Part shown: in pieces, positions 13,041-32,246 of the stretch | Layout of the letters: each line of letters opens with the position of its first letter | Numbering within the stretch: the stretch's first letter is position 1 | The notes under the pieces: generated by a model | Seen by the model: only the letters and a program-made list of their open reading frames with translations | What the model was told of the DNA's origin: nothing | Database searches by the model: none | Made by a program: the position numbers and the translations under genes | IMG/VR virus record: IMGVR_UViG_3300026430_000265 | Location: 2,771-66,770 of that record | DNA from: a virus | Length of the DNA: 64,000 nucleotides | Reading direction: 5' to 3' (one strand)

Positions 13041-13055
13041 TCCTGGAGTATTTTC

Positions 13056-15571: not shown

Positions 15572-16131
15572 TGATCGCTGACGGATTGCAACTTGTCGCC
15601 GGTTCGGGCCTCTCTATTCAGATGCTCGACGATGCGCGCCGAGGGCCTCAGTTCCCTTCGAGTCCTACAGACGGCTCGCTGTGGGAACTCACGGAAGTCT
15701 CGGGAAACTTCATCCCGGGAATCTACGAGTTCCATCAGGGTTGGAATCTTCGCAACCCTGCGCACAGCGCGTTGTCCTACGACTTGTCGGGTACTGTACT
15801 CGGTAAGCCTGACCCTTCTGCCAAAGTGCTGTATGTGGTCGCTTCCAGGACTTTCTATCTGCAAGGATCGCTGGCTGGTGCCATTGCGTATGCGCTGCAA
15901 GCCTCTGGTTCGCAGCAAGACTTTAGCGTCGGCATCACGCGCAAATCGGAGTTTATCCCCGTAGGCACTATCCGCTTTAAAGCCTTCGTGGAAGAAGCTG
16001 AGTTTGTTCCTGCTACGACCGACCCAATTCGGGTTGAGCGTGGCGACATCCTCATCATCACAGCTCCGGACCTCGTGGATTCCACGATTGCGGACATTTC
16101 GATCACCTTGTGTGGTTACCTATCAGTGTAA
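15571..16131 (+). CDS. Virion structural protein
   Basis: TAATG coupling at 15571 is preferred to the 15520 start; C-terminal GTIRF..RGDILIITAPD..DSTIADISITL resembles a phage structural domain. Confidence 0.65.
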   Translation: MIADGLQLVAGSGLSIQMLDDARRGPQFPSSPTDGSLWELTEVSGNFIPGIYEFHQGWNLRNPAHSALSYDLSGTVLGKPDPSAKVLYVVASRTFYLQGSLAGAIAYALQASGSQQDFSVGITRKSEFIPVGTIRFKAFVEEAEFVPATTDPIRVERGDILIITAPDLVDSTIADISITLCGYLSV

Positions 16132-16143
16132 CGGAGAAACAAC

Positions 16144-17139
16144 ATGGCTGGTAAGATTTACAAGAAGTCCAAACTGCAAGGTCTCGATCAGTTCGCGACC
16201 GCACTGTTCGCCGACCTGAAAAGCGCGGGTCTGACTCAGGTTCTGCCGGCTTCGGGCCAGAACTTCTCTGTCACCAGTGGTGCAGGCAAGTTCGTCTTCG
16301 ACTCTTCGGCGGGCGTCAACCCACTGAACGAAACCCAACCATGGCGTCTGCTGCTCGACCTGTCGGGCGCTACTGCTGGTGCGGGCAAGATCAAGATGGC
16401 AATTGCCAACCCACAGCAGATCACCACTGCGGGTGCCGTCACCTCGTTCCCAGGTTCGGGCGTAGATATCAATGGTACTCGTGTCATGGGTCAGCTGGGT
16501 ACTTCCTGGACCAAACCGCAGCCTGTGATCGGCGACACCTTCATCAACCGTGACGTGCAGAACAGCGGCTACGACCTGGGTACTACCCTGTCCTACCTGC
16601 TGGTAGCCACCCCACGCGGTATCACCCTGTTCGTCTGGGAAGATGCTTCCGACGCCAACCCGCGTTACAGCTTCTTCAACGTCCAAGTTCCTGTGAACAA
16701 GGACACCGGTGTCGCCCTGATCACCGACAACTCGCCGATCTTCGTGGTCTACGAGTGCGATACCTCGGGCCCGATGAAGTTCGTTGTCAACGAGAAGGAC
16801 GTCTTCCGTCCATCCATCAGCAAGCCGGCTGACGCCGACTCGGTGAACAGCGCGGCGATCCTGAACAGTCAGGATCAGGTTGCAATCGCCAAGGGTAACA
16901 AGTACCTGGTGACCTTCCCGAACCGTCTGAACACCGACCGTTACGCTTACACCGAGGAACTCGACCTGTTCGCGTACACCTCGGCTGACGTGATCGGCGA
17001 AGAATCGGAAATCCCGGTTCGCGTCTACGGTGAGACTTCGGATCGTATCTACCGCGCGATGAAGGCCAACAAGCCGAACAACGCCGGCATGCGTCTGCTG
17101 CTCCTCGTGTCGGGTGGCGGTGTACCTGAAGCCGTCTAA
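16144..17139 (+). CDS. Abundant virion structural protein
   Basis: 331 aa; GGAG RBS; strong high-expression codon bias; followed by a terminator. Confidence 0.7.
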   Translation: MAGKIYKKSKLQGLDQFATALFADLKSAGLTQVLPASGQNFSVTSGAGKFVFDSSAGVNPLNETQPWRLLLDLSGATAGAGKIKMAIANPQQITTAGAVTSFPGSGVDINGTRVMGQLGTSWTKPQPVIGDTFINRDVQNSGYDLGTTLSYLLVATPRGITLFVWEDASDANPRYSFFNVQVPVNKDTGVALITDNSPIFVVYECDTSGPMKFVVNEKDVFRPSISKPADADSVNSAAILNSQDQVAIAKGNKYLVTFPNRLNTDRYAYTEELDLFAYTSADVIGEESEIPVRVYGETSDRIYRAMKANKPNNAGMRLLLLVSGGGVPEAV

Positions 17140-17152
17140 TTCGGCATTCACT

Positions 17153-17203: not shown

Positions 17204-20158
17204 ATGTTTATTCCAGTTAGCTTGGCTTCTGGCTCAACCTACGTAGACGTAACCCTAGACGCCACTGGTGTTCTGAAAGCGGGTTGCGTGGTCACGTACA
17301 AGGGCCAAGACTACGCTGCGAATACGGACATTCAGGTTACGAAAGGTGACACGGCACGTCTCACGACTACCGTGACTGCATACGCCGAGATTAGCGTGGT
17401 TCTCGCCGGGAAGACTTACCTCTGGTTCGTTGACCTGCCAAAGACTCTGCGTTACGTCACTACCCAGGCGTACAAGGCGATCACCGGCTCTACCTATGGC
17501 AAGCTGTACAAGCCAGGGTCGAGCAAGCAACTGTCCTACGCAGCCACCGGAACCTTCACCGTTGCCGATGCAGTCGCATCCATCGACTACGCCAAGAAGG
17601 AAATCTGGTTCTTCAACACTGCCGACGAGGTGAAGAAACTCACCTTTGCGGAAACACCTGTCGCGATCACCTTTTCTCCTATCTGGAGCGAAGCTGACAA
17701 CGTTGCTGCCGTGCCTTGGGTGGTCACTGCTGGCAAGCTGTACAAACTCACCAACCTGTTCGCCGTTGACTCGTCCTACACGCTGACTGGTACGCCTCTG
17801 GCTGCCACTGGCGACATGGAAGGCAACATTGTCATCGGCTTCGCTGACCGTATCGAAGTCTGGAGCAACGCGGGCGCGCTGCTGTATACCCAGACTGGCA
17901 CGTTCACTGGATTGACCTCGATTGTGTGCGACAACTCTGGCCTGCTCTATCTGGGCATGGCTTCGGGTATCACCACAGTTGCGCGGGTTGCAGGTTCGTT
18001 CACCGTGACGCAGATTCTGGCTCGCCCAGGTTTGTACTTCGACATGGACCTGAACGATGTATACGTCTATGCGGTTGACGCAACGAACCGTTGTTTGCTG
18101 CTTATCAACCGCAACTCCAAGGCACTGGAGAAGACGGTCTACTACTCCAAGGTTCCTCTGGACGTAGTGGTCTACCGCAGTGAAATCTACGTGTCCTTCC
18201 TCGACACCACTGGCATCATCAAGTATGACCAAACACTTGGTAATGCGACCGACGTCGCTACCACTGTGCGGTCGGCTGGTGCTGCTTACATGGGCGAGGT
18301 TGTTGTCACCGACCTGTATTCGGATGCTGCGGACGTCACCTCTGCGGAAGCGAACGTCAGCCCTGTGCAGACCATCGTGGAGAACGTGCCGTACAACGCC
18401 GCGTATGAGTACACGTGGACAGTCAACTGGGTTCGCCCAGAGTTTGTCAAGCTTGGCACCACGAACGCGACGGTCACGGTCAACGGTCTTCCGTGGACTT
18501 CGGGTTACCTGAAGAAAGACGACGTGGTAAAGATCAGCGTACCGGCACGGGCGTCGTACTACGATGCGCAAGCGGTCACGTTCATGGGCCGTCGGGCAAC
18601 CACGTTCCAGTTGCGCACCGAGCCGAAGCTGTTCCCAACGTTGAGCACGCTTGACCAAGTGAACGATGCTCTGCCGCGCGTGCAATACGAGGACCTCTTC
18701 GCTGTCGAAGGTATGACTGACGGGTTCAGCGTGGACATTGACACCGATGAATCCATCATCGAGTTCAGCGTCAACGGGGGTGACTTCGGTAAGACAGGCA
18801 CGATCAAGAACGGTGACATTGTTGTGGTTCACGCCACTCCAGTAAGCCTCTTGGCGCAGCGTATTGCGTACACCATCAACACCGTGTACGACAAGCCTGT
18901 GGCGACGTGGACAATCCTGATGATGCAGCTTAACGGCGCATTGGTCTGGGAAGAGAACGTGGTCGATGTGCCTCGTGGTTTGACCGTTGTGTACGAGCCG
19001 CCAGAGCGTGTGAGTAATGAGCCGCTTGTCGGTGATTGGTACGATAGCAACTCGGTGCAGAGCTGGACTGCCGACGAGCCTGATGTAAGCACGCAACCTA
19101 CAGTGCTGAGCGCTGATGGGTACTCGCCAGTGTGCGACAAGACTCGCATCATCAAGCTCAACGCTGTGCCGTCACCGGTACTTACCAAGTCGCAATTTGC
19201 CAAGTCGCAACTCCAGACCGCGGATCGCCTACCTTCCCAGACAGTGCTTAAGGTGCAGGCAGAAGCCGAAGCCCAGCGCACGCATTGGGACAAGCTGATC
19301 CTGTTCAGTGCCTGGGACGCCAACCGCTCCTACCTCGGCAAGACGGTATACACACCGTCTGAGTTCAGCCGCGATGTGGCTACAGTCAAGCTGGTACAGA
19401 TCGACGTGAAGGACAACTTCAGGCTTAATCACCTGAACGCGCCGCAGTATTCACCATTGACGTACAAGCAGACTCCGCTGAGCACTCCACGGTATCGCCC
19501 GCTTGCGTACTATCGCTATGCCGCCAAGGCTCCGATGTACCGCGACATGGAGATCAAGCTGGATCACCTGAACGCTCCGATGTATCTGGATACTGTTTGG
19601 GAACAGCCTCAAGTGAGCCGTGCGTGGCAATTCACTATGGGTGTGGACAAGTTCTACCGCTACCCAGTGAGTTTTGTTGATGCGATCTACCAGCGTCATC
19701 ACACGCTTGGTCAGGCGTTCTCTCCGATGCCTTTCATCGAGGGTCTGCGTCCGAACAACAAGCGCATCGAGGTGTCGCTGAGCTTCGTTATGCGTCCGCC
19801 TCGTGTTGCCTATGGTGTAAACACTGCGTATGAGCGGCGTCAAGCGCTCACTCGTTCTGAGCAACCCATGGCTTACGTGCGCAACGTGTCTTCGATCAAG
19901 GAAGTGGCCAAAGCCGCACCGTCGTTCGAGACGCCGAAGCGTAATAGCTACACCATGGCCGACGAATCGCGCGGTGTGTTTGCAACACAAGCACAGGCTG
20001 AGGCTTACGTCGCCACGTTGGGACTTGAGCTGGAAGTGGAGTATCGTCAGATCGACGGCAAGTGGATTTTCGTCACCTTGCCAGTAGCTGTCGCCGCGTC
20101 GTGCCCTGTCACGCAGCCTGAGTTCAAGAAACGTTTCGGCTATGTGAGAGGTGGCTGA
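17204..20158 (+). CDS. Large virion/tail protein: propeller-like N-terminal half, Ig/cadherin-like repeats, Pro/Tyr-rich C-terminal third
   Basis: 984 aa; GGAG RBS; EFSVNGG..GTIKNGDIVVV Ig-like repeat; HLNAP-x-Y repeats. Confidence 0.65.
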   Translation: MFIPVSLASGSTYVDVTLDATGVLKAGCVVTYKGQDYAANTDIQVTKGDTARLTTTVTAYAEISVVLAGKTYLWFVDLPKTLRYVTTQAYKAITGSTYGKLYKPGSSKQLSYAATGTFTVADAVASIDYAKKEIWFFNTADEVKKLTFAETPVAITFSPIWSEADNVAAVPWVVTAGKLYKLTNLFAVDSSYTLTGTPLAATGDMEGNIVIGFADRIEVWSNAGALLYTQTGTFTGLTSIVCDNSGLLYLGMASGITTVARVAGSFTVTQILARPGLYFDMDLNDVYVYAVDATNRCLLLINRNSKALEKTVYYSKVPLDVVVYRSEIYVSFLDTTGIIKYDQTLGNATDVATTVRSAGAAYMGEVVVTDLYSDAADVTSAEANVSPVQTIVENVPYNAAYEYTWTVNWVRPEFVKLGTTNATVTVNGLPWTSGYLKKDDVVKISVPARASYYDAQAVTFMGRRATTFQLRTEPKLFPTLSTLDQVNDALPRVQYEDLFAVEGMTDGFSVDIDTDESIIEFSVNGGDFGKTGTIKNGDIVVVHATPVSLLAQRIAYTINTVYDKPVATWTILMMQLNGALVWEENVVDVPRGLTVVYEPPERVSNEPLVGDWYDSNSVQSWTADEPDVSTQPTVLSADGYSPVCDKTRIIKLNAVPSPVLTKSQFAKSQLQTADRLPSQTVLKVQAEAEAQRTHWDKLILFSAWDANRSYLGKTVYTPSEFSRDVATVKLVQIDVKDNFRLNHLNAPQYSPLTYKQTPLSTPRYRPLAYYRYAAKAPMYRDMEIKLDHLNAPMYLDTVWEQPQVSRAWQFTMGVDKFYRYPVSFVDAIYQRHHTLGQAFSPMPFIEGLRPNNKRIEVSLSFVMRPPRVAYGVNTAYERRQALTRSEQPMAYVRNVSSIKEVAKAAPSFETPKRNSYTMADESRGVFATQAQAEAYVATLGLELEVEYRQIDGKWIFVTLPVAVAASCPVTQPEFKKRFGYVRGG

Positions 20159-20688
20159 TGATTACTCAAAGTCAATTCCGCTACGCCAAACCCATCACGG
20201 CAAATCTGCGCGGGCTTGTAAAGGCGCGCAGTGTCAGCTATCAGGACACGTCGTTCACCGACTATCTGGTCATGGTACCGATCAACCGCAATATGTTCGA
20301 CGTGTTCACGCTTGACGGGATCACGCTCAACCGCGAAGAGGGATTCTTCCCTGAGTATTACTTCGAGGATGGGAAGCTGGTTGTACGGGAACCTGGGGAC
20401 TACATTGTGCGCGTCTACTCGGAAATCCTTCCGTTTGAAGACACCACGATCAACGTCACCAGCAACATGGTACAGGCAGAAGGTAACTCGTTCGTCACGT
20501 CCATACCGTTCTGGCCTCAGATTTTGGGGCAACCACAGAATGGTGTAGCGCGTGTGAGCAACGATGGTCGGCGTATGTCGTATGTCAGTAATGGCTTCAC
20601 GGGCAATGACTCGTTCAGCTACCGAATGGTCAATGCTTATGGACAAGTAAGTGAGCCAGCCTGCTGCTACGTCACAGCCGCAGCGTAA
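20158..20688 (+). CDS. Ig-like (Big_9/cadherin-like) domain virion protein
   Basis: TGATG overlap; C-terminal PQNGVARVSNDGRRMSYVSNGFTGNDSFSYRM matches the Big_9 consensus. Confidence 0.65.
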   Translation: MITQSQFRYAKPITANLRGLVKARSVSYQDTSFTDYLVMVPINRNMFDVFTLDGITLNREEGFFPEYYFEDGKLVVREPGDYIVRVYSEILPFEDTTINVTSNMVQAEGNSFVTSIPFWPQILGQPQNGVARVSNDGRRMSYVSNGFTGNDSFSYRMVNAYGQVSEPACCYVTAAA

Positions 20689-20743: not shown

Positions 20744-22198
20744 ATGCTTAGCCTAGTACCTCGCTTTGCTCTCTGGCCCAAAGATCGACTTGGGCAAGAC
20801 GTATCACTTCTCGGCACGTACACAAAGGCTAGGATCAGCGATCTTGGTATGAACTATCAGCTTCACCACGATCCCAATGTGTTCTATACGCCTAACCAAC
20901 CAGTGGAGCGAATTGACCCGAACTTCCAATTTGAATCCACAAACTTCAACACTGGTGTTCCCTATCCGTCACTCTACGCTGTCGGGGACAAGTTGGTATC
21001 GAGCCGATCCGTTGCGAGTATCTCCCAGCTAGCCACAGACGGTAAGACCTTCACTACCAAGATGGCAGGTAGTACGTACGGACACGGCTCACTAACCGCC
21101 TTCAAAAATGAGTTGGTCTACCAGATCATCCGATCTAGCCAGAACGCTTATGAGGCACGGCCGAACTCCAAAGATATGTCAGGCACGGCGACGGTCAAGT
21201 CTACCGCTTCACCGCCCGCAGTCGACCCGTACTACTGGGGTAAGAGCAAGAATGCCTTAGTCGGCTCCACATCCTGGTCAGCATCTGGCAGCAACGTGTT
21301 CGTCTGCTGGAACTTCCCAACGTTTATTCAGTACGGTGGGCTGGGTCCAAGTATGGGTGTGACCTCAAATGCCCGTTACGTGTATTTCGGGTATAACGTG
21401 TTCTATGGGTTCCAGAGCACAAACCAGCAGATGCTGCTGTATGTAGGCCCCACTCAGGGTCAGACTGCAGGCCTGTTGGACATGCGACCATATGGAGTCC
21501 AATCCATCGCCCACGTTGACAAGTATCTGTTCCTCGTGAAAAACAACACCCTGATGATCGCCTCACTCGCGCCGCAACCTGACGATCCTAACGCGACACA
21601 AGCGCAGGTAACAGCCTATGTAGCCAAAATCAAGGCGCTACTTGATGACCTCTCGGTAAAGAACTGGAAGACCATCGACAAGCTCTCTGGTATTTTCCAA
21701 GCGGGTTACCGCTGGGGATCGCAGCACTTTGTCACGCATAGCCTGTTTACTGCCAACTCAACTACCAAGACCAACATCTGGAAGGTTGAGGAGAAAATCG
21801 CAAAAGCCTTCACCATTACTGCAGGCAGGCAAGTCGGCAGTGACGCTAACTTGGGCTCAACTGGTTATGTGGACAACACAAACGGCAGTTATGGGCTTGC
21901 AGGTAACGCGGGTACGATTCAAAACACGACAGGTGAAGGTGTTCGGATTTGCTGTGATTGGATACAGGCCTCAGGTAACAACGGGTATAACGGATTCTCC
22001 ATAGAAATCACAGGAGCGCACGCGGATATTCGTGCTAAGTACAAAGGGATCAAGGCAAATGGTAAATGGTTCTATTTCGACCTTAATTCAACAATTACTG
22101 CGCAGGTCGGTCTAGGTAATACCATATACAGTTGGTGGAACACACTCGCTGACTTCGTTGACGGTGAGACCTACACCATAGAATTAATCCAAGCATAG
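20744..22198 (+). CDS. Putative fibre/receptor-binding protein, MLSL-tag family member 1
   Basis: True start is ATG 20744 after the terminator (MLSLVPRFALWP); beta-rich 484 aa; C-terminal Gly/Tyr tip domain (STGYVDNTNGSYG). Confidence 0.65.
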   Translation: MLSLVPRFALWPKDRLGQDVSLLGTYTKARISDLGMNYQLHHDPNVFYTPNQPVERIDPNFQFESTNFNTGVPYPSLYAVGDKLVSSRSVASISQLATDGKTFTTKMAGSTYGHGSLTAFKNELVYQIIRSSQNAYEARPNSKDMSGTATVKSTASPPAVDPYYWGKSKNALVGSTSWSASGSNVFVCWNFPTFIQYGGLGPSMGVTSNARYVYFGYNVFYGFQSTNQQMLLYVGPTQGQTAGLLDMRPYGVQSIAHVDKYLFLVKNNTLMIASLAPQPDDPNATQAQVTAYVAKIKALLDDLSVKNWKTIDKLSGIFQAGYRWGSQHFVTHSLFTANSTTKTNIWKVEEKIAKAFTITAGRQVGSDANLGSTGYVDNTNGSYGLAGNAGTIQNTTGEGVRICCDWIQASGNNGYNGFSIEITGAHADIRAKYKGIKANGKWFYFDLNSTITAQVGLGNTIYSWWNTLADFVDGETYTIELIQA

Positions 22199-22210
22199 TA
22201 GGTAATCACA

Positions 22211-22270
22211 CTGCCGATATTTGTACCACGCTTCGCGCCCTGTCTTGTAACTAGACCGGAGAACGTTTGA
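22211..22270 (+). pseudogene. Decayed 5' end of an MLSL-tag family gene
   Basis: TAGGT RBS, then CTG CCG ATA TTT GTA CCA CGC TTC GCG CCC TGT (L/M-P-I-F-V-P-R-F-A-P-C), colinear with M-L-S-L-V-P-R-F-A-L-W of gene 20744; stop after 19 codons; lies in a 234-bp gap. Confidence 0.5.
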
Positions 22271-22432
22271 ACTGCGGATTTGGAGTCTGCACTACTTGAA
22301 GATCACATTCTTGGTTGTGTGCGGTGCCGTATTACCACATGGGTCTTTCCCTAAGTTCAAGCAGGTGGTGTAATTTCAACACTGCGTAATGGTCAATCCC
22401 AACAACGCACCAATCCATGCAAGTAGGTGCTT

Positions 22433-25400
22433 ATGCTCTCACTCATCCCTAAGTTTTCACTCTGGCCAATCGCCAGACCTTTGAAGACCCAGAAAGGATT
22501 CACTACAATCGCAGTCGGTGCTAATGGCCTGATCGCTCGTACTACCGACGGCGTTACATGGACGGAACCCGCGTCTGGTGTCACTACTGAACTGCACATG
22601 GCAGCATATGGTGGTGGCGTCTGGATGATTGTCGGCGCAAGTTCCACGATCCTGAAGTCTACTGACGACGGCGTGACGTGGACTAAGCTCACGGTCTCTA
22701 CGGATATCATAACTAACGTGCCAATGGCACAAGCGTCGATTGTATATGACGCTGGTCGTTTTCTAGTCATCACCAATAACCGTATGTGTATCTACACTAC
22801 GGACAACGGCGCTACGTGGACGCGCATCAACGCTTCCTCTATGCACACCAACTACTTCAAGCGGCGTGCGCGTCGCTGGGATGCTGACGGCAAGATTTAC
22901 CAGAACGGTGGCGCATCGGGTGCGGGTTACACCGTGTTCAACTGGAACGGTACGGGCTACGTGGCTGTCAACGAGAACGCTGTCTCGGGTTCGACCTACA
23001 TTGTCCAGTCGGCCATCGCAGGCAGTGCAACTACCCTAGCTTCGCTGCAACAAGGTGCGTCGATCAACCGCAAGAAAGACGGCGTCTGGACGAAGACACG
23101 TAACGGCGGCAGCAACGAAGACATGGTTGATGGCGGTATGAGCTACAACGCCAACAGCAATGCGTTCTATGCTGTAGGTAATACCGGCAGCGGCCCAACG
23201 ATCTTCTTCGGTGTCGATGGTGACAACTGGCAAACGCTGCCGAACACGACCACCATGTTTGGCGGTGCTGGGCAAAAGCTCTCGGACATTAGCTCCTACG
23301 ACAAGAACTCGTTCATCGTTGGCGGTACCAAAATCTTCACCTCGACGGACTGGACCACGTGGGGTCTTGCGTACACGGCAGGATCAGCGTTCAACACCGT
23401 GAGTACCCGCGAGCGCGTTATCAACACCATCGGCGATGCGTACCGCTGGCGTCTTGTGTCGTTCAAGGACAATGAGCACATCGACGACGTGACCGAGAAA
23501 TTCATGACGTCGTGGAACACAATGCCTACGCTTGCCAATCAGCGTATGCGTACAACGTCCGACGGCCAAGGTCTGTACGAAGACGACATGGTGTTGTTCG
23601 ATGGCACCGAAGACTTCACTGTGGGTATCACGCTCACGCCTGCGACCCAGCTTGCGGCAAACGTGGGTAAAGACCTGCACATCTTCTCGGGTGATGCGCA
23701 AGGTGGACGTGGTACTTGGTACTGCAACTGGGCTACCAATTTCCAGAACTTCCTGTTCCGGTTCTATAAGGCAGACGGGACCCAAGTTGCAGTGATCCCA
23801 TCAGGCGTTCTGACACTGGCTGCCAACGTGGACTTCCACATTGAGTTGGGTCGCAAGAACGGTGTTCTGTACATCTTCTACAACGGTGTCAAGCAGACCA
23901 TCAACGCGATTGACACTGGTGCAAGTCAGGCGCAGCAGGCAGCAGTCAAAGGCTTGAGCCTGGGTATGACTGGCTCCAGCAACGGCTTCAACGGCTGGCG
24001 TCGCAACTTCTACATCGACCGCGGCATCTGCCGACACACCGAGAGCTTCACGCCTGATTTGGCACCTATGGAGCACGTTCGCACTGTCTACTCGGATGAA
24101 GATGCGGCTGCTATCCGCTGCCAGTTCGATATGCGTCGAGACTCCAATCACAACGTTGCATCTGGACGTGCGCTGACCTTCTTGGGTTACGCCAACTGCT
24201 ACGTGCGCCGTGGTCGTATCTACTTCGGTGGCACACAGTCGGCGACTGCTAACTGCTATCAGATGCAGATTGACCCATGGGGTGCTGGAGACTTCACGCT
24301 AGAAGCGTCGCTGCTCGTTACGGCAACAAATGCAAACGGAGGCATCCTGATTGCTGAGTGGTACTACGGTACAGCAACGGACGAACGTAACCGTTGGGCA
24401 TTCAGCATCGGTAATGACCGCAAGGTATACTTTGGCATCGCGCAGAACGCGGCTGGCTCCAGCGCAACCTACGTTATCTCGAAGCTGGCGCTAACCAATG
24501 GTCTGTCTTACAAGATCATCGTTGAGCGTGTTAGTGGTGTCATTACGATCTACCTGCTGGATGCGTACACAGGCGTGCTGCTAGACTCCACGTCTGCCAA
24601 TATCCCGTACCCGATTCGCGGTAGTATGCCTCGTACAATCTCCAACTCGTCGGCCGCAGGTAACTTCTGGGCTGGTACCGGACAGATGTGGGACATTCGC
24701 ATTGCTGACAAGGCAATGTACAACGGGAAGCCTGTGCTGCTCAACGGCTTCCCAGCGTTCCCAGATCGTCGCTACTCCGAGAGCGATCAGGCAAACGTCG
24801 TTGCGCAGTTCAACGGCAGCAACCCGATCGAGCAAATCTCCTCGGCGTATGTTGCTGTCTCGGGAAGTGCAGTGATAATCAACAACCAGTTGCAGATTCC
24901 AAACGGCGGTGGATTCCAGTTCTCGAAGACTACGCCGCCATTCATGGCAGCCGACTTCACGATTGAATGCCGCATGTTGTTCAACACCATTGCAGCCAAT
25001 CCATGCTCCGTCATCGGTCAGTTCCTGAACTCGCGCAGTGACAACTCGTGGCACTTCCGCATCATGAACGGTCACATTGGCGCTGTGTTGTCGAAGACTG
25101 GTGCTGCGCTGACTGATCTGGTCGTGCTGGAGTCAACGATCACGGCTGTCGCTGGTGTGGAATACTACGTGGTTGTTGAACGCGTCGGGTCTACCATCAC
25201 GCTGTATGTCGATGGTGTGCCGAGTGCTACTGCAACCTACGCTGGCAACTTTGGACAATCGCCTATAGCAATTCAGCGCGGTGACATTAGCTCCTACGCT
25301 GGAGTCTTGCGTGATCTGCGTTGCTCTAAGGTGTCGCAGTACAAAGGCAACGTGCCTAAGTTCCCGCAGTATCCACGAGTGCGTAAGCCCAAGCCTCACA

Positions 25401-25807
25401 TCACTCTCGGGTTCCATCAAGGTGGTGTCGGTACGCTCTACGGTTACATGGAGAACAGCGACTACACGTCTCAAGTCGGCTGGATTTCGTTGGGCAGTTG
25501 CTCGCAGAAGCTCTGGCAGGTTGGCGGAGTCGTGCGCCGCATCAAAGGCCTGTTCATTGACCGCAATAACTACATGATTATTGGCTGGGAGGTGACGAAC
25601 ATCACACCAACTCCGGATATCCCTCTGTGGACGGAGACGCTGGAGATAAACGGTACGCGGTTCGGTAACCTAAGTGGTCAGCCATACAGCGGTTTCACAA
25701 CCCCGCTGGCTTCAATGGGTACAGGCACGTCCGTGTACTGGAGCGGAGCTGCTTCGTTCTGGGGTACGCTGCAAGAAGGGCGCATGGTGTCCTTCGACTT
25801 CGTGTAA
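22433..25807 (+). CDS. Putative receptor-binding protein: BNR/YCF48-like beta-propeller, three LamG/ConA-like domains and a tip domain; MLSL-tag family member 2
   Basis: Starts MLSLIPKFSLWP; Asp-box motifs S-T-D-D-G-x-T-W; three DFT-x-E..W..L..V-E-R..LY-x-D-G LamG-type repeats; 1124 aa. Confidence 0.75.
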   Translation: MLSLIPKFSLWPIARPLKTQKGFTTIAVGANGLIARTTDGVTWTEPASGVTTELHMAAYGGGVWMIVGASSTILKSTDDGVTWTKLTVSTDIITNVPMAQASIVYDAGRFLVITNNRMCIYTTDNGATWTRINASSMHTNYFKRRARRWDADGKIYQNGGASGAGYTVFNWNGTGYVAVNENAVSGSTYIVQSAIAGSATTLASLQQGASINRKKDGVWTKTRNGGSNEDMVDGGMSYNANSNAFYAVGNTGSGPTIFFGVDGDNWQTLPNTTTMFGGAGQKLSDISSYDKNSFIVGGTKIFTSTDWTTWGLAYTAGSAFNTVSTRERVINTIGDAYRWRLVSFKDNEHIDDVTEKFMTSWNTMPTLANQRMRTTSDGQGLYEDDMVLFDGTEDFTVGITLTPATQLAANVGKDLHIFSGDAQGGRGTWYCNWATNFQNFLFRFYKADGTQVAVIPSGVLTLAANVDFHIELGRKNGVLYIFYNGVKQTINAIDTGASQAQQAAVKGLSLGMTGSSNGFNGWRRNFYIDRGICRHTESFTPDLAPMEHVRTVYSDEDAAAIRCQFDMRRDSNHNVASGRALTFLGYANCYVRRGRIYFGGTQSATANCYQMQIDPWGAGDFTLEASLLVTATNANGGILIAEWYYGTATDERNRWAFSIGNDRKVYFGIAQNAAGSSATYVISKLALTNGLSYKIIVERVSGVITIYLLDAYTGVLLDSTSANIPYPIRGSMPRTISNSSAAGNFWAGTGQMWDIRIADKAMYNGKPVLLNGFPAFPDRRYSESDQANVVAQFNGSNPIEQISSAYVAVSGSAVIINNQLQIPNGGGFQFSKTTPPFMAADFTIECRMLFNTIAANPCSVIGQFLNSRSDNSWHFRIMNGHIGAVLSKTGAALTDLVVLESTITAVAGVEYYVVVERVGSTITLYVDGVPSATATYAGNFGQSPIAIQRGDISSYAGVLRDLRCSKVSQYKGNVPKFPQYPRVRKPKPHITLGFHQGGVGTLYGYMENSDYTSQVGWISLGSCSQKLWQVGGVVRRIKGLFIDRNNYMIIGWEVTNITPTPDIPLWTETLEINGTRFGNLSGQPYSGFTTPLASMGTGTSVYWSGAASFWGTLQEGRMVSFDFV

Positions 25808-25883
25808 GGACAATCCACGGCTCAAGGACGAGCCCCACGTCATCTGACCGGATACCATTATTCGACTCTAAGAGAACCCACCT

Positions 25884-28481
25884 ATGCTGTCTCTCATACC
25901 TCGCTACTCTCTTTGGCCGATCGAAAGGAACACGGGTGGGCCACCTCCGAACAATCAGTACGTCTGGTCACAACTTACGTTCAAGGAAGGATTGCCTCTG
26001 GATGAAGGTAGTGAGACGCTGCTAACCCTGGGCAGTGGTGCGTCGATTGATACCAGCGACAGCACCTTGTTGATGACCAACACCACAGATGCTGCCCTCA
26101 ACGGTATGCCTCCACCGTACATCAAGGCGAACGAAGATTTCAGCATCGAAAGCTGGGTAGCGTTCACCTCGGTCAGCCAGTATGGTGGTACCATCTTGTC
26201 TTTGGACATGCTCGGTGCTGGCGGTGAAGGCAATATCTCCATGTACTTCGCGGTTCTGCCTGCACAAGCCATCAACTTCCTGCTGACGTCCACAGGTAAT
26301 CGTGGTGGTGCAGGTGACGCTACCATCACCAACATTCCAGAGCTACTGCAACCCAAGGCGCACATTGCTGCATGCCGTGTCAACGGTGTGCTGACTATCT
26401 ACGTCAACGGTCAGATCAAGTATCAAGGTCCGCACAGTACCGCAGGCTTCTTGTCGACCGAAATGATGAGCATTCGCCGCGGGGCCATCGGTAAGCGCTG
26501 GAACATCCGTATGATGCGTGGCAAGTCCGCGTACAACGGACCATTCACTCCACCTACAGAACTGCCTGCTCTGGTGTATGAGACTTACACTGAGGAAGAG
26601 CAGCGCGGCATTGTTTTTCAGGCCAGCTTCCGTCGTAACGAGTTTATCAACGAAATCACCCGCGAGCCTTTCACGCTCTCCGGTACCGCTGCGATGCAGT
26701 GGAATCGCATCATCACGCAGCAGCCTTCGTCGTCTCGCTTCGAGGCCCCATTGGCGTACTTTGGTGCAGGTGATTTTACCATTGAGTGCAAGTTCCGCAT
26801 CACTCAAGCTATGGGTAACGGGCAGTGTGGCGTTATCACACAGTGGGCGTACGGTGGGCAAGCCGGTAACTCGTGGTGCTTGTTCTTCACTGGTGCGTTG
26901 CAGCTCCAGTTTGCCTATGTTTACTCTGGCACTTCGACGTATGCGTTCAACGCAAACAGGCTTCTTCCGAAGTACGGTGCGGACGTCCATGTCGTAGTAG
27001 AGAAGGTCGGTAACATCGTCTCCATGTACTTCGACGGTGACCTTGTTGGGCAGATGAACGCTCCTCTGCCCATAATCAACAACTCGACAGTTCGGGGCCT
27101 GCGCGACAACTGGGACAGCTTTCCGGCAAACTCGGACGCCCTGCACGTCACCAACATTCGCATCGCAGCGAAAGCGCTTTACAACGGTAACATCGGGCGT
27201 CCGCGTGTAGCACTGCCGCGCGTGCGCACGCCATACAACGGCCCAGGTCCACAGAAGCCAATCGCCGGTAACTTCAACCAGGGTTACTTTGGTGAAGTGC
27301 CAATGAGTGAGGTCATGCAAGGTGTTGATCTTGCGACGTATCTCGGACTCACCGAAGGTACGCCCGTCAATGCTGACACTACATGGTTGAAGTTTGCTCT
27401 CGACGGAAAGATCCTGTTTATTCCGAAGAAGCCATTGCGCACCGGTATCTCGTGGCAGGCGCTCTACCAAGCAGGTGCTGTCTATGGTCTGGAGACGGGT
27501 ACTGGCGTACAGCCGCTGCCTTCATCCAGCCCTGTGCAGCAGACTACTCGCATCACGACTGCTGGTGGGCACTTCCGCGTTCGCCTCCCCACAGGTGCAA
27601 GTCAGAACCCTTACACTGGCAACGGTGCTGCGGGTGCGTCTGTATCTGAGTGGACGTTGCTGATGAATCGCGTGAGTGTGAGCGCCTCAGCAGCTACTCG
27701 TTGGGCTGCCTTCACCAATGAAGAGCTGGGTTTGGATGTGCCTGGGTCATGGTGCCAAGAGTACCTGTCAACAACAACCACATCGCGTGTATGTCGTGGT
27801 ACCAACAACGCTATCGCTGGTATCTCGTCGAACACTGGCGCTGTAGCCAGCCAACTTTGGCGTCCTGTCTTGGAGTTCATCACTCCTGACGTGATTCCTC
27901 TGGTAACAAATGGTAAGTTGGAGACCTTCGTGTCGGCGTACGGCTCTCCTGTCTACAACGACGGCTTCGTCCGCTTACCTGCAGGTTCGTATTTGTCAAT
28001 TCAACCGTCAAGTTCTATGGTGTTCGGCACCACAGATTTCACGGTTGATATTGAATTCAACTGCGCTACGGCTGCGTCTCAAGCGGGCACGTCCATGATT
28101 ACCTTGGTATATTGGGGTACTTGGGCTGCTCCTGGCAAGTTGGTAAACTGGGAAGTGCAGTACAACACCACGAACGGTTACTTCTATTTGTCAACCGACC
28201 ACGGAGGCAACGCGACTTTCTATCGCCTGTACGACTTCCCAGTGCAGATGAACAAGTGGTACAAAATGCAGATTACCCGTGACAACGGTATGATGCAATG
28301 CTGGGTTGACGGTGTGATGATCGGCGAGTTCGCGTTCCCGATCGACATTCAGCTGGACACCCCTTCTGTCATGTACTTCAACCGTCGTCTTGGTGGGAGT
28401 AGTGGTCAGGTCGTGTGGAGTAGCGACATTTCACTCCGCAATTTCCGCATTGCCCAAAAGGGTCGGTCCAAACTAGGCTGA
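25884..28481 (+). CDS. Putative receptor-binding protein: LamG-LamG-[phiKZ virion-paralog-like domain]-LamG; MLSL-tag family member 3
   Basis: Starts MLSLIPRYSLWP; three LamG-like repeats; internal GYFGEV..WLKF..DGKILFIPKKP..ISW..LYQAGAVYG..RVRLPTG..SEW..WCQE..WRPVLE domain. Confidence 0.75.
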   Translation: MLSLIPRYSLWPIERNTGGPPPNNQYVWSQLTFKEGLPLDEGSETLLTLGSGASIDTSDSTLLMTNTTDAALNGMPPPYIKANEDFSIESWVAFTSVSQYGGTILSLDMLGAGGEGNISMYFAVLPAQAINFLLTSTGNRGGAGDATITNIPELLQPKAHIAACRVNGVLTIYVNGQIKYQGPHSTAGFLSTEMMSIRRGAIGKRWNIRMMRGKSAYNGPFTPPTELPALVYETYTEEEQRGIVFQASFRRNEFINEITREPFTLSGTAAMQWNRIITQQPSSSRFEAPLAYFGAGDFTIECKFRITQAMGNGQCGVITQWAYGGQAGNSWCLFFTGALQLQFAYVYSGTSTYAFNANRLLPKYGADVHVVVEKVGNIVSMYFDGDLVGQMNAPLPIINNSTVRGLRDNWDSFPANSDALHVTNIRIAAKALYNGNIGRPRVALPRVRTPYNGPGPQKPIAGNFNQGYFGEVPMSEVMQGVDLATYLGLTEGTPVNADTTWLKFALDGKILFIPKKPLRTGISWQALYQAGAVYGLETGTGVQPLPSSSPVQQTTRITTAGGHFRVRLPTGASQNPYTGNGAAGASVSEWTLLMNRVSVSASAATRWAAFTNEELGLDVPGSWCQEYLSTTTTSRVCRGTNNAIAGISSNTGAVASQLWRPVLEFITPDVIPLVTNGKLETFVSAYGSPVYNDGFVRLPAGSYLSIQPSSSMVFGTTDFTVDIEFNCATAASQAGTSMITLVYWGTWAAPGKLVNWEVQYNTTNGYFYLSTDHGGNATFYRLYDFPVQMNKWYKMQITRDNGMMQCWVDGVMIGEFAFPIDIQLDTPSVMYFNRRLGGSSGQVVWSSDISLRNFRIAQKGRSKLG

Positions 28482-28487
28482 ATAATT

Positions 28488-28526
28488 TAGTCCATAGTCA
28501 GATGCTTGGCTATGGACTATCCTTTC
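28488..28526 (+). terminator. Probable rho-independent terminator
   Basis: TAGTCCATAG / CTATGGACTA perfect 10-bp stem, extendable inward, followed by TCCTTTC; sequesters ATG 28502. Confidence 0.6.
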
Positions 28527-28537
28527 GGACGTATGCC

Positions 28538-28735
28538 ATGAACGTGAGTTTCGATATTCTACCACCAGTAAAAGCCCGGCTCCAGAAGCAACTGCCCAAG
28601 GGTAAGCGCAAGAAGGAAGCTGATCGTGAACCTGAGTTTGAAGATCAATCTCGGGCAATCCAAGGTGATCTGGCTCGCCGGCTCCATCGGGTGCTCAAGC
28701 GTGCGTCTCACCAGCACTATCGAGAAGGTGAATAG
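28538..28735 (+). CDS. Small basic hypothetical protein
   Basis: 65 aa from ATG 28538; the upstream ATG 28502 lies in the hairpin loop. Confidence 0.55.
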   Translation: MNVSFDILPPVKARLQKQLPKGKRKKEADREPEFEDQSRAIQGDLARRLHRVLKRASHQHYREGE

Positions 28736-28737
28736 CT

Positions 28738-29040
28738 ATGGACGTTAAAGGTGCGTTGACTTCTTCCGTGAAGTGGCTCAAGTGGTTGGGAGCTTTGCTG
28801 CTCGGGGTGGCAGTAGCGGTTGTTGTGCGCGCCTTTCCCAAGGGTGGTAGTAGCTCAACTGTGACTGCTCCACCTCCACCAGATATGACCAAGGCGGATG
28901 AAAACGTCAAAGACCTGGAGCAACAGCAGGTCGTGATAAAGGACCAACACACGCAGATCGAACAGACCCTGGCTCCAAAGCCCGTCACTCCCGACAAGAG
29001 TTTGGACGATGCTGTGCGCAACTGGAACGAGGATAAGTAG
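28738..29040 (+). CDS. Bitopic membrane protein, i-spanin-like
   Basis: TM WLGALLLGVAVAVVVRA, Pro linker, short coiled coil; heads the lysis-like cluster. Confidence 0.45.
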   Translation: MDVKGALTSSVKWLKWLGALLLGVAVAVVVRAFPKGGSSSTVTAPPPPDMTKADENVKDLEQQQVVIKDQHTQIEQTLAPKPVTPDKSLDDAVRNWNEDK

Positions 29041-29051
29041 GAGCGTACAAC

Positions 29052-29450
29052 ATGATAACCGAGGCAGTCAAAGGGCTACTTGGTGTCGAACCCGCCGTGG
29101 CACTGACGTACTTCCTGTGCGTTGTCATTGGCGTTCTCATTAACTGGGCAAAGCGCTGTCGTGAACTCGATATCGGGCTGCTGGCTTACTGGACCACAAA
29201 CCCAGTGCGCTCGCAGACTGCCATCATCGGTACGATTGCAGCGTTTGCGTTCACCATCATCACAGACCCTGAGTCGTCCAAGCTGACGTACATGGCCATT
29301 GGCTTTGCGTGCGACAACTTGCTCAACAAGGTACCTGTGACCGGTGCTGCCGCTGACGTGATCGCTCGCCAAGAGGCTGCGATCCAAGTGCAAGAGGCGA
29401 AGATGCAGGAAATCGTCCAGCAACTACCCGACGCGCCCAAAAGCGCATAA
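29052..29450 (+). CDS. Putative holin-like membrane protein
   Basis: 132 aa with 2-3 hydrophobic helices and a charged coiled-coil tail; AGGAG RBS. Confidence 0.45.
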   Translation: MITEAVKGLLGVEPAVALTYFLCVVIGVLINWAKRCRELDIGLLAYWTTNPVRSQTAIIGTIAAFAFTIITDPESSKLTYMAIGFACDNLLNKVPVTGAAADVIARQEAAIQVQEAKMQEIVQQLPDAPKSA

Positions 29451-29455
29451 CCAGG

Positions 29456-29485
29456 ACCCGCAGTGCTGACCGTGCTGCGGGTTTT
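29456..29485 (+). terminator. Weak terminator/attenuator hairpin
   Basis: ACCCGCAG / CTGCGGGT 8-bp stem plus 3 inner pairs, followed by a short U run. Confidence 0.5.
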
Positions 29486-29501
29486 CGCACAGGTAACGAA
29501 C

Positions 29502-29969
29502 ATGAAAATGGTATTGGCAGTGCTCGCCTTGAGCGTACTCACTGGGTGCAGCATGACCCAAGTGCAGCCAGACAAGAGTGATCGCTACAGCGCGTTGGCT
29601 CCAGTGGACAGTCTCAACGCCAAAGCTGTCGATCTACCTGCGGTGCCCCAGATCAAGATTCAGACGATTGGCGAGGAGCGCTTCGCCACTCTGGACACTG
29701 CTGGGATGAACCAACTGAATGCCTATCGGCAAGCAGCCAAGCAGAACACCGAAGCGTTGCAGTTACTGCTCACAGCGCACAACGGCTTGGTGACCCAGCG
29801 CAACCTGATGCTGGAGAATCTCAAGCTGGAAGAGGAACGTGGTAACTACTACGCAGAGCGCTACGCTGACACCGAGAACCAGCGACGCCAGCAGTACCGC
29901 GAACTCACAACCGAGCTGCTGATCCACAAGGCAGTCATCATATTCATGGGCATTTTCCTGGTGATGTAA
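29502..29969 (+). CDS. Lipoprotein with C-terminal TM helix (unimolecular-spanin-like topology)
   Basis: Start 29502 after AGGT; lipobox LTG-C16; helical coiled coil; hydrophobic C-terminus AVIIFMGIFLVM. Confidence 0.6.
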   Translation: MKMVLAVLALSVLTGCSMTQVQPDKSDRYSALAPVDSLNAKAVDLPAVPQIKIQTIGEERFATLDTAGMNQLNAYRQAAKQNTEALQLLLTAHNGLVTQRNLMLENLKLEEERGNYYAERYADTENQRRQQYRELTTELLIHKAVIIFMGIFLVM

Positions 29970-30430
29970 TGGACAACCGTATTCAGATCAGCAAGAGCTT
30001 CACCATGTACGACGTCCAGTTCGACGAAACGGCATTCCGCCTTGGCATCGACAACATCGTACCCAATCAGGACTACGCAGACAACGCGGCCTTGCTTGCC
30101 GAGAAAGTGCTTGAGCCTTTGTGGGCTGAGCTTGGGCCGCAGTACATCACGTCGTGGTATCGCTGCGAGAACCTGGAGCGCGAGTACAGCCGCAAAGCGT
30201 TCGCCATGTGGTGTATCGAGAACAAGAAGCCCATCCGCGAACAGCAGTGGCAAGAGTATCTGGCGATGAAGCAGCACTACACCGCGCAAGCTGTATGCCT
30301 GCGTGGTGATAACGACGCCATCTTCGCGTTCATCAAATCGCTCAAGGACTTCGACGTCCTGCAGCACAAGGAACATTGGATCAGCGTTTCCTGCACGCTC
30401 TCCAACCGTAAACGTGTAATCGAAAAGTGA
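29969..30430 (+). CDS. Peptidase M15A (Peptidase_M15_3)-like protein with altered Zn ligands
   Basis: ISKSFTM..LGIDN..LAEKVLEPL..ITSWYRC..QH..AV-C..FD..W-I-S-VS aligns to the M15_3 consensus (SGYR..SQH..GEAAD..WVHVS). Confidence 0.65.
   Translation: MDNRIQISKSFTMYDVQFDETAFRLGIDNIVPNQDYADNAALLAEKVLEPLWAELGPQYITSWYRCENLEREYSRKAFAMWCIENKKPIREQQWQEYLAMKQHYTAQAVCLRGDNDAIFAFIKSLKDFDVLQHKEHWISVSCTLSNRKRVIEK
30410..30430 (+). repeat. 21-bp direct repeat, copy 1 (copy 2 at 31240-31260)
   Basis: AAACGTGTAATCGAAAAGTGA, the 3' end of the M15-like gene. Confidence 0.9.
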
Positions 30431-30437
30431 GGAACGG

Positions 30438-31235
30438 ATGCTCACGCTAATCCCAGTCAAGTCAAGCATGCCATCGACGGTTGTTGGACAGCAGACGCTG
30501 ACCTCTTCGCAAACCTTCACTGTTCCAGACGGAGCTGAGAATCTTTGCGTCGTAGCGGTGGGATCAGGTGGTACTCGTGGTGCCAACTATGTCTTTGGTT
30601 TTCCCAGCGTAACCTACTTCGCAGGTGCTGGTGGAGGCGGTGCACTATGTTGGGCAAACTCCTTACCTGTTAACCCTGGTGATACCATCGAAGTAAAGAT
30701 TGGTACCCTTGGAAGTCAGACAGATACGACCATCGCAGTCAACGGCACCGTCATACTGCGCGCTGGTGCAGGTAAGAATGGCGGCAATGGGAACTCAGCC
30801 AATGGCGGCACTCCCCAGCGAACGGGTGGTGCTGGCGGTACGTTCACATCTACTTTGCCTGCAGGTACGTGGGGTGGTGGTAAGGGTGCCGCGGGCTCTA
30901 ACGGTATGACGTCAGGTAGCGCTCCACCCTCAGCTGGTGGCGCTGGTGGATATGCGGGTGACGGTGGCTTTGCTAATGGCTCGGTCGGCGGTGGTGTCGG
31001 TGCAGGTGGAGGCGGCGGCTCCAACAAGGGTAGTGCCAGCGGAGGCGTAGGTTTGCAAGGCCAAGGAACAAACGGTCAAGGCAGCTTCACCGGATACTCT
31101 GCGCAAGCTAACGGTTCCCCACCGGGTCCATTCTTTGGAGGTGCGGAAGCTCAAGGTGGCGCTGTGCGATTCATCTGGGGTAAAGGTCGCGCCTTCCCTA
31201 AAACCAGAACAGCGGACATTACAGAAGCTGCCTAG
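30438..31235 (+). CDS. Glycine-rich domain virion protein, MLSL-tag family member 4
   Basis: Starts MLTLIP; TFTVPDG..VAVGSGG..GGGGGALCWAN..VNPG..GAVRFIWGKGRAFP Gly-rich domain. Confidence 0.75.
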   Translation: MLTLIPVKSSMPSTVVGQQTLTSSQTFTVPDGAENLCVVAVGSGGTRGANYVFGFPSVTYFAGAGGGGALCWANSLPVNPGDTIEVKIGTLGSQTDTTIAVNGTVILRAGAGKNGGNGNSANGGTPQRTGGAGGTFTSTLPAGTWGGGKGAAGSNGMTSGSAPPSAGGAGGYAGDGGFANGSVGGGVGAGGGGGSNKGSASGGVGLQGQGTNGQGSFTGYSAQANGSPPGPFFGGAEAQGGAVRFIWGKGRAFPKTRTADITEAA

Positions 31236-31239
31236 TACC

Positions 31240-31260
31240 AAACGTGTAATCGAAAACTGA
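31240..31260 (+). repeat. 21-bp direct repeat, copy 2
   Basis: AAACGTGTAATCGAAAACTGA; 20/21 identical to 30410-30430; intergenic. Confidence 0.9.
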
Positions 31261-31358
31261 CGCAACATGATCTAAAGCTGTCTGGAACGGTGCCTTCCTT
31301 ACGGCGATCACCTCGCAGATGCGACGCACGGGTGTTAAAGGCACCCACAGGAAGTACA

Positions 31359-32246
31359 ATGCTGACTCTAATTCCTAGACAATCCCCCAGCTTGGTCCCA
31401 AGACAACCAATTGGCCAGATCACGATTCTCGAATCTCGACAGTTCGTTGTACCCGACGGGGTCACTATGCTTAGTGCCGTGTGCGTAGGCCCTGGCGGTA
31501 GAGCAGGCAGCGGAGAAAATGGTCGCCGCATGGGTGGTGGCGGTGGCGGTGGTGCCTTATGCTGGGCCAACGAAATTCCAGTAACACCCGGCGAAGTTCT
31601 TGATATCGTGGTCGGTCAAGCCTCGCAAGTTACGGCCATATACAATGCTGTTAGCACCGTGGTGACTAGCGTATCCCGCAAAGGTGTCGTGCTTATGGCT
31701 GCAACATCTGGTCGCCATGGACGCGCAGGGTCGTTTTCAAATGGCAGTGGGCCTGGAGGCCTTGGAGGTACTTACACCCATCATGTGTCGTTGACAAACA
31801 AAGGTGGTGGCAACGGTGGTAATGGTGGATTTGGTGGTTCTTGGTCTGGTCCGAATGATGCGTCAAGTGGCGGAGGCGGCGGAGCAGCAGGCTACACAGG
31901 TAACGGCGGTAAAGGAGGTAACGGCGGTTCCGGTACTTCTGGTTATTACTCATGGAATATAGGTGGTGCTCCAGACGTCGATAGCGGTGGCGGTACTGGT
32001 GTGTCAATGCCAGGGTCCGGAGGTAGTAGTTACATAGGTGGCGGTGTTGGATTGCAAGGTAAGGCTGAAAATGGAGTACCGCTTAATAGGTCTGATCACG
32101 GTGTCCCAGGTTCGTCCCCAGGCCCTTACTATGGCGCCGGCTCCTCTGGGCCTGGAACTGCTGCACAAAATGGCGCTTGCCGCTTGATTTGGGGTACTGG
32201 TCGAGCGTTCCCGAATACAAAGACAGCAGACATTCAAGCTGCATAA
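31359..32246 (+). CDS. Glycine-rich domain virion protein, MLSL-tag family member 5; paralog of 30438
   Basis: AGGA RBS before ATG 31359 (MLTLIPRQS); GGGGGGALCWAN..VTPG..GACRLIWGTGRAFPNTKTADI. Confidence 0.75.
   Translation: MLTLIPRQSPSLVPRQPIGQITILESRQFVVPDGVTMLSAVCVGPGGRAGSGENGRRMGGGGGGGALCWANEIPVTPGEVLDIVVGQASQVTAIYNAVSTVVTSVSRKGVVLMAATSGRHGRAGSFSNGSGPGGLGGTYTHHVSLTNKGGGNGGNGGFGGSWSGPNDASSGGGGGAAGYTGNGGKGGNGGSGTSGYYSWNIGGAPDVDSGGGTGVSMPGSGGSSYIGGGVGLQGKAENGVPLNRSDHGVPGSSPGPYYGAGSSGPGTAAQNGACRLIWGTGRAFPNTKTADIQAA

Follow-up and report, generated by a model that had tools for sequence, protein, structure and literature searches.

A conserved 15-residue N-terminal peptide on unrelated adhesin-like proteins of PaBG-like jumbo phages, a candidate docking tag

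Five genes in a 64,000-nucleotide stretch of viral DNA (IMG/VR record IMGVR_UViG_3300026430_000265, positions 2,771 to 66,770; hereafter the window, with positions counted from its first letter) encode adhesin-like proteins that begin with the same short peptide and continue, with few exceptions, as different proteins. These genes, referred to here as A to E, lie on the plus strand of the window within a tail-fibre block, where they form two islands, A-C and D-E. The shared peptide, or tag, is a clade-wide and cleanly delimited character of phages related to Pseudomonas phage PaBG, strictly N-terminal and restricted to the fibre module. We favor the interpretation that this 15-residue tag is probably an N-terminal docking (anchor) peptide, fixing interchangeable, separately translated binding modules to a conserved site on the virion. 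The window is taken from the minus strand of an IMG/VR contig of 137,684 bp, which is estimated to cover ~52% of a jumbo-phage genome. As judged by protein similarity and gene order, the source phage is a relative of PaBG and a jumbo myovirus of the PaBG-like clade: proteins of the window and of PaBG (Baikalvirus, 258 kb) share 40-76% identity, and the genes of the window follow the PaBG order from gp243 to gp207.

The pattern ML[ST]L[IV]P has five matches in a six-frame translation of the whole contig, whereas residue frequencies predict 0.028; over 100 dinucleotide-type shuffles the mean was 0.03, with never more than 1 match. All five matches are the ATG starts of open reading frames (ORFs) of 265 to 1124 residues on one strand, at 20744, 22433, 25884, 30438 and 31359, exactly where a preliminary description of this DNA had placed them, and each is preceded at a distance of 5-13 nucleotides by a Shine-Dalgarno sequence of the GGA/GGAG type. 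In B and C an in-frame stop occurs 2-6 codons upstream, and the Met is therefore the true start. When starts were scored with a position-weight matrix built from 18 tags, A, B and C reached 35 bits, E 13.5 and D 10.8, whereas the remaining 4,602 candidate starts in the contig reached 5.2 bits at most, at an internal Met. Beyond the tag, BLASTP found nothing in common between A and the other tagged proteins past the first 15 residues, while B and C have LamG modules in common and D and E are paralogues; this agrees with the preliminary description, in which the bodies were considered unrelated apart from LamG modules and the Gly-rich pair. The same description had put the length of the tag at 6-12 residues, which must be revised, as alignment extends the conserved unit to 15 residues, up to a near-invariant Arg15.

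Among the loci collected here, from about ten PaBG-like phages, there are 25 tagged ORFs. Their aligned consensus is M-L-S-L-I-P-[RK]-[FLY]-[AS]-[PL]-W-P-x-x-R, with Pro6, Trp11 and Arg15 present in at least 90% of copies, and a shorter variant, M-L-T-[LF]-I-P, is found on Gly-rich proteins. A six-frame reading of 565 kb of PaBG-like DNA gave 25 peptides with scores of at least 24 bits; every one of them begins with ATG at the start of an ORF, and none is internal. PaBG itself carries the tag on two 'putative adhesins', gp216 and gp215, and a variant on the fibrinogen-like gp217. Only gp215 and gp216 reach 39.9 bits among the 9,203 candidate starts of the complete PaBG genome, the next best scoring 8.4, and a check for the motif on non-structural genes found none in that genome, with the same outcome in this contig. 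The tag is thus found at extreme N-termini only, on adhesin-like genes of the tail/fibre module and across the clade, which bears out the original proposal that it heads a diverse set of adhesins.

Relatives were for the most part retrieved with the 176-residue homologue of PaBG gp223 that is encoded next to gene A in the window. Used as bait, this protein identified 16 homologous clusters at 47-89% identity, and eight contigs were fetched; three further loci were reached through homologues of protein A and of the Gly-rich proteins. The bait search also showed a contig of 266 kb on which proteins of this phage are encoded. A back-translated tag pattern had 8 matches among 241 million metagenome records, of which 7 were due to chance and one, in the locus designated L012, was real. 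In viral contigs the strict back-translated pattern had no matches, and a relaxed one found PaBG along with a single chance match containing an internal stop. A tblastn search of 50,697 deposited phage genomes with a 20-residue consensus-like tag returned PaBG only. Against these same phage records, megablast of the region and tblastn with protein A both found nothing, and tblastn with protein E gave only a weak match in Erwinia phage AH06, with a different N-terminus. Searches for related loci in viral contigs with E, and with the 984-residue product of the gene preceding the gp223 homologue, found no relatives.

Several properties of the tag indicate that it is maintained as a peptide. Over 23 tags, Leu2 is encoded by all six Leu codons, Ser3 by both TCN and AGY, Arg15 by both CGN and AGR, and the prolines at positions 6, 10 and 12 by all four Pro codons; despite this scatter, tag residues are kept in 19-23 of the 23. 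For identical tag residues of different genes compared in pairs, the same codon is used in only 0-3 of 6-8. The preliminary description had pointed to codon differences among the five genes, had proposed that selection acts on the peptide rather than on DNA or a ribosome-binding site, and had dismissed a signal peptide, and on each count we come to the same view. Among the identical residues of A, B and C the same codon occurs in only 2-3 of 7-8, and the combination of synonymous scatter with retained residues implies selection on the peptide, excluding a DNA recombination site, gene conversion or an RNA signal. Pro6, Pro10 and Pro12 interrupt the hydrophobic stretch of the tag, which has only 4 residues (L-S-L-I), and by Sec, Tat and lipoprotein criteria the tag sequence has neither an Ala-x-Ala site nor a lipobox. 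The tag is also far better conserved than the adjoining residues, in phages whose core proteins are only 30-57% identical, and a homologue of A with 33% overall identity still retains 9 of the 15 tag residues. Residues 16-27, just behind the tag, contain 10.6% Pro as opposed to 4.1% in the bodies and are otherwise of similar composition, which lends weak support to a flexible linker at this position.

At least five unrelated classes of payload are carried on the tag, as distinguished by Pfam and PHROG: LamG arrays, accompanied by a BNR propeller in B or a discoidin domain in locus L021; the orphan protein A; small proteins of 112-115 residues; Gly-rich proteins (D, E and L018_798, the latter with Pfam Gly_rich_2); and the fibrinogen-like gp217 of PaBG. 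Protein A (484 residues; gene at 20744-22198, tag at 20744-20788) has a beta-rich payload with no Pfam or PHROG match. Its homologues among 5.8 billion proteins fall in only two other clusters, both tagged; a PDB sequence search with it found nothing, and its AlphaFold2 model, made from a 3-row alignment, was unusable (mean predicted local distance difference test, pLDDT, of 39.6). Protein B (1124 residues; 22433-25807, tag at 22433-22477) consists of a BNR/sortilin-type propeller at residues ~20-320 and then a LamG array, both from Pfam/PHROG matches. Protein C (865 residues; 25884-28481, tag at 25884-25928) combines LamG modules (Laminin_G_3, E 1e-23) with a central domain, in matches that include phrog_1062, phrog_3589 and phrog_16120, and this central domain is held in common with PHROGs annotated 'virion structural protein'. 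A lysis cassette at 28738-30430 on the plus strand, identified by tblastn against PaBG proteins as homologous to gp213-gp210, separates the first island from the second. There, D (265 residues; 30438-31235) and E (295 residues; 31359-32246) have Gly-rich payloads that match phrog_4474, and both begin with a divergent tag subtype, which in D reads M-L-T-L-I-P-x-K-S-S. Gly-rich genes are also present at this post-endolysin position in loci L029 and L030, with starts of the form M-L-[STA]-F-I-P.

Comparison of the bodies shows how payloads differ behind the tag. Residues ~317-1108 of B align to the whole body of L016_814 and of L012_811, proteins in which the LamG array follows the tag directly, and this LamG body has its start near residue 320 in B and near residue 440 in PaBG gp215; from this offset we conclude that new domains were inserted behind the tag while the tag stayed N-terminal. 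The Gly-rich domain of E has 629 representative homologues, almost all of which align only from query residue ~14-28, after the tag, and these homologues have other N-termini or are embedded in larger proteins. GC content at third codon positions (GC3) is 0.46 in D and 0.41 in E, compared with 0.58 in A, 0.62-0.66 in B and C, and 0.62-0.73 in core genes, the overall GC of D and E being normal (0.55-0.57). The statement in the preliminary description that several payloads are AT-rich is therefore appropriate for D and E, with A at a GC3 of 0.58, and does not apply to B and C, which are like core genes. The low GC3 of D and E would fit a codon-usage signature of recent acquisition, as expected for a captured payload behind a resident tag, and natural grafts are suggested both by this foreign composition and by the Gly-rich homologues with other N-termini. 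The related proposal that payloads are interchangeable is supported, some of them (D and E) being compositionally foreign.

Payloads have also been lost. The gap between A and B contains a fossil sixth tag (22211-22330, plus strand), recognized in translation, in which the ATG has become CTG, Trp11 has become Cys, and the reading frame ends at a stop after 19 codons. What remains here is the trace of a LamG adhesin that was deleted: the close relative L029 has an intact 52-residue stub ORF in its place (L029:11465), and both the fossil and this stub match the N-terminus of a 797-residue adhesin that occupies the position in L022. Another stub of the tag, 39 residues long, occurs at L028:2501. 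Such decayed stubs point to turnover of adhesin cassettes.

The tagged genes directly follow a pair of genes homologous to PaBG gp224 and gp223 in nine loci (this window, L012, L014-L016, L018, L021, L022 and L029). In the window, the gp224 homologue (984 residues; 17204-20158, plus strand; 45% identity over gp224 residues 1-591) is a candidate socket carrier, and the gp223 homologue (176 residues; 20158-20688, plus strand; Pfam Big_9, E 4e-6) a candidate adaptor or socket. The start of the gp223 homologue overlaps the stop of the gp224 homologue, and in nearly all relatives the first tagged gene comes immediately after it. The calculated mass of PaBG gp223, 18,908.23 Da, corresponds to that of virion band 14, 18,908.47 Da, which was reported as 'gp263' (PMC7412058 Table 1), and locus numbering confirms the assignment, PaBG_00263 being RefSeq gp223 and PaBG_00270/271 the tagged adhesins (PMC7412058). 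By this match in mass and numbering, the gene adjoining the tagged genes encodes an abundant virion protein. It is important to distinguish this from the 'gp215, long tail fibre' of the same paper (PMC7412058), which we rejected as virion evidence for the tagged adhesins since it follows another numbering and differs from RefSeq gp215.

The gp224 homologue comprises ~545 N-terminal residues of immunoglobulin (Ig)-like domains and a beta-propeller, a variable middle and a conserved C-terminus. In AlphaFold2 only residues 1-545 were modelled with confidence (pLDDT in the 80s across 20-450); Foldseek returned propellers of the YVTN/NHL/BamB type and uncharacterized jumbo-phage proteins, with no baseplate assignment, ESM Atlas gave no usable match, and a PDB sequence search found nothing. 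Its middle (18980-19470 in the window, residues ~590-780) cannot be aligned to PaBG, and its pLDDT is only ~25 (residues 545-920); this hypervariable insert lies between two conserved parts, the propeller at the N-terminus and the ~60 final residues. L018:13059-18809 contains two copies of a block made up of two gp225-like genes, one gp224-like gene and one gp223-like gene, and behind each copy stands a separate tagged adhesin, the two adhesins differing in tag variant. This duplication amounts to a natural experiment for co-variation of tag and socket, and suggests that the tag subtype covaries with the gp223/gp224 paralogues. Fusion of the gp223 homologue to the first tagged protein by read-through or frameshift was also considered, and was rejected because the frame relation (0, 1 or 2) is inconsistent, with only 4 of 9 in frame; in addition, every tag has its own Shine-Dalgarno sequence, and stops occur just upstream of most later tags.

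Under the docking interpretation, each adhesin-like protein would be translated separately, its free, proline-rich N-terminus would bind a conserved site on a tail or baseplate protein of the virion, and the payload (LamG, propeller, discoidin, Gly-rich or orphan) would be displayed after a short spacer as a host-surface binding module. If the tag alone is needed for incorporation, payloads could be replaced, extended or lost with the conserved virion core untouched. The support for docking consists of conservation, N-terminal exclusivity, peptide-level selection, modularity, turnover and a structural neighbourhood. We infer from these that the proteins are incorporated into the virion and that the tag binds there, with the gp224 and gp223 homologues (17204-20688) as candidates for the socket. 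The docking role given to the tag in the preliminary description is accordingly plausible, in line with precedent and partly supported.

A number of observations weigh against this interpretation. As receptor-binding virion proteins, the tagged proteins have in their favor lectin-type domains and matches to 'virion structural protein' PHROGs, yet gp215 and gp216 (PaBG_00270/271) are not among the 14 Coomassie-visible bands of the PaBG virion (PMC7412058). The argument from synteny is partly circular in that relatives were mostly retrieved via the gp223 homologue, and the DNA-pattern scans, which are independent of gp223, reached only PaBG and one contig (L012) that also carries gp223. Instead of trimeric fibres or spikes of the classic kind, the payloads resemble monomeric lectin arrays. 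Finally, a Pfam search for T4_gp9_10_N (PF07880) with E<=1 as the limit came up empty both for this contig and for the whole PaBG genome, and the fold of the gp224 homologue, propeller and Ig-like domains, is unlike that of gp10; this negative is one of sequence and partial fold and would allow for a structurally cryptic domain. Prediction of a complex between residues 1-545 of the gp224 homologue, the gp223 homologue and a 36-residue tag fragment gave no answer (score 0.00) and counts neither way. It is tempting, on a distinctly more tentative level, to consider a socket other than a T4gp10-like domain, for example a gp224-like propeller or a gp223-like Ig domain; the tag would then belong to a second, independent plug-and-socket arrangement on a jumbo-phage tail that serves monomeric lectin arrays in place of trimeric spikes, with M-L-T-[LF]-I-P used at a separate site.

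The tag might instead be a handle for assembly, recognized by a phage folding or assembly factor or by the preceding adhesin without permanent contact to the particle, the proteins perhaps reaching the virion via other surfaces. Such a handle would be conserved in the same pattern as a docking tag, and a candidate factor exists in the PaBG gp214 family (~229 residues), which closes the adhesin island in PaBG, L014, L016, L019 and L028. However, the island of L019 has its gp214-like gene without any tagged gene, the gp214 position in this window is occupied by a short ORF only, PHROG and Pfam gave no chaperone signal, and the payloads have no other common surface by which they could attach. We therefore regard an assembly handle as unlikely.

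Absence from the 14 abundant bands of the PaBG virion (PMC7412058) is what would be expected if the tagged proteins were soluble or host-directed lectins outside the virion, released at lysis or acting inside the cell, with the tag binding a host partner or a non-structural phage partner. The location of D and E after the lysis cassette, adjoining non-structural genes, would agree with this. The island A-C, on the other hand, has virion genes on both sides, matches to PHROGs annotated 'virion structural protein' are found in the central domain of C and at the C-terminus of L018_798, and a tag without signal-peptide features offers no route of export before lysis, so that we consider non-virion lectins quite improbable.

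In phage T4, the internal proteins IPI-III and Alt carry a capsid-targeting sequence, an N-terminal peptide of ~10 residues on otherwise unrelated cargo, which sends them into the interior of the head, where the prohead protease cuts it at a Glu motif. The tag resembles this sequence in being a short N-terminal peptide on unrelated proteins, and could in principle be a packaging, targeting or processing signal for the prohead or another compartment, perhaps itself cleaved, with the near-invariant Arg15 marking a processing site. Unlike the T4 sequence, the tag is followed by no conserved Glu or [LI]-x-E motif in the alignment, only Arg15 being conserved past Pro12, and it is proline-rich rather than amphipathic. 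The tagged genes, moreover, are in the tail-fibre/baseplate block beside the gene of a tail-module virion protein and not with the head genes, and they encode extracellular binding domains of lectin type (LamG, discoidin, BNR, fibrinogen-like). Even though virion proteins of PaBG are proteolytically processed (PMC7412058), a role in targeting is very doubtful.

That the tag has no function at all, being the relic of an ancestral N-terminus, a hot spot of gene conversion or recombination, or an element of translation initiation, is scarcely tenable, for although paralogous tagged genes stand in tandem and stubs show where recombination or deletion broke the genes, just behind the tag, the randomized synonymous sites and the codon-box switches at Ser3 and Arg15 exclude DNA-level homogenization and an RNA-level signal, and conservation of the tag across divergent phages is far above that of the adjoining residues.

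Other sets of proteins in the same module have N-termini in common. The collagen-like tail-fibre genes at 3339-4034, 4047-4562 and 8406-9215 (PaBG gp240, gp239 and gp236) begin with M-(x)-G-(R)-L-T-R-[IV]-[PH], of which the core L-T-x-[IV]-P resembles that of the adhesin tag; homology here extends over ~90 residues, a common anchor domain and not a bare tag. A third set consists of a 1216-residue fibre-like protein (4578-8228) and the 56-residue ORF that follows it (8228-8398), which have in common M-x-x-R-L-R-[IV]-R ... W, and the same pairing is seen in PaBG gp238/gp237 (36% identity over 53 residues, tblastn). In the gp223 family, an invariant F-R-x-A-K-P (residues 7-12) follows M-[LI]-[ST]-[SQ] (20158-20193 in the window), and PaBG gp219 and the ORF at L015:14168 (109-131 residues) have a tag-like start, M-(L)-[ST]-[LT]-[TS]-I-[FL]-R-[LF]-[AS]-P-V. 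The N-terminus of gp223 is loosely tag-like, and possibly several small proteins use related N-terminal strands.

Two further features of these loci were noted. A 229-residue gene of the Alginate_lyase2 family is present between the adhesin island and the lysis cassette in some relatives (L016:18715-19404, L028:3185-3874) and absent from the window and from PaBG; it fits Pseudomonas-type hosts with alginate. In this GC-rich block, naive calling of the longest ORF picks the wrong strand: the long minus-strand ORFs at 16123-17151, 12885-14588 and 3390-4529 are shadows of plus-strand genes, homologues of PaBG gp225, gp229 and gp240/239, respectively.

If the tag alone suffices for incorporation, it provides a 45-nucleotide handle by which the adhesin repertoire of PaBG-like phages can be read from sequence, and any ORF that starts with it could be taken as a candidate for a host-recognition module. 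The tag is also a defined starting point for experiments to find the socket on the tail of a jumbo phage whose baseplate is uncharacterized.

Short docking peptides have precedents. The tailspikes of K1E, K1-5 and SP6 have N-terminal peptides of 7 and 11 residues (PMC6872550), and the secondary receptor-binding proteins (RBP2) of the Klebsiella phages KP32, KP34 (M-A-L-x-x-L-V), Menlow and jumbo PhiK64-1/RaK2 begin with group-specific 'conserved peptides' as short as seven residues (PMC6872550). Deletion of the KP32 peptide abolishes incorporation, and its graft onto a foreign enzyme loads that enzyme (PMC13352976). The preliminary description had considered the tag to be undescribed, and this stands for the peptide itself, the tag string having no match in the literature and being absent also from the PaBG paper (PMC7412058); it does not stand for the mechanism, docking by such a peptide being established (PMC6872550, PMC13352976). 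Folded anchors are also familiar: in T7 gp17, CBA120 TSP1-4 and G7C gp66 an N-terminal element likewise anchors variable receptor-binding modules, but it is a folded domain of ~100-300 residues, whereas only 15 residues are in common here. Donor-strand complementation, as in chaperone-usher pili, is brought to mind by the Ig-like Big_9 match of the gp223 homologue, though with three prolines the tag is poorly suited to a regular beta-strand.

The closest parallel is therefore with K1-5, SP6, KP32 and KP34. There, as here, a very short peptide at the extreme N-terminus (7 to ~20 residues) is the sole common element of otherwise unrelated proteins, receptor-binding proteins there and putative ones here, each phage group has a peptide of its own, and the payload genes interrupt structural synteny and are exchanged horizontally. 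The present tag has another, proline-rich sequence and belongs to a lineage of PaBG-like jumbo myoviruses, and its payloads are lectin-like (LamG, propeller, Gly-rich) instead of beta-helix depolymerases. Up to five tagged genes, formerly six, occur per genome in two islands; no T4gp10-like branching partner is detectable, and docking, demonstrated by experiment for KP32 (PMC13352976), is here the probable function of the tag. The docking-peptide principle is thus not new, while peptide, lineage, payload type, copy number and apparent partner differ. If our interpretation is correct, docking by 'conserved peptides' would reach beyond podoviruses and their depolymerase spikes to a jumbo myovirus whose payloads are of lectin type, with a hint of a docking partner other than a T4gp10-like domain.

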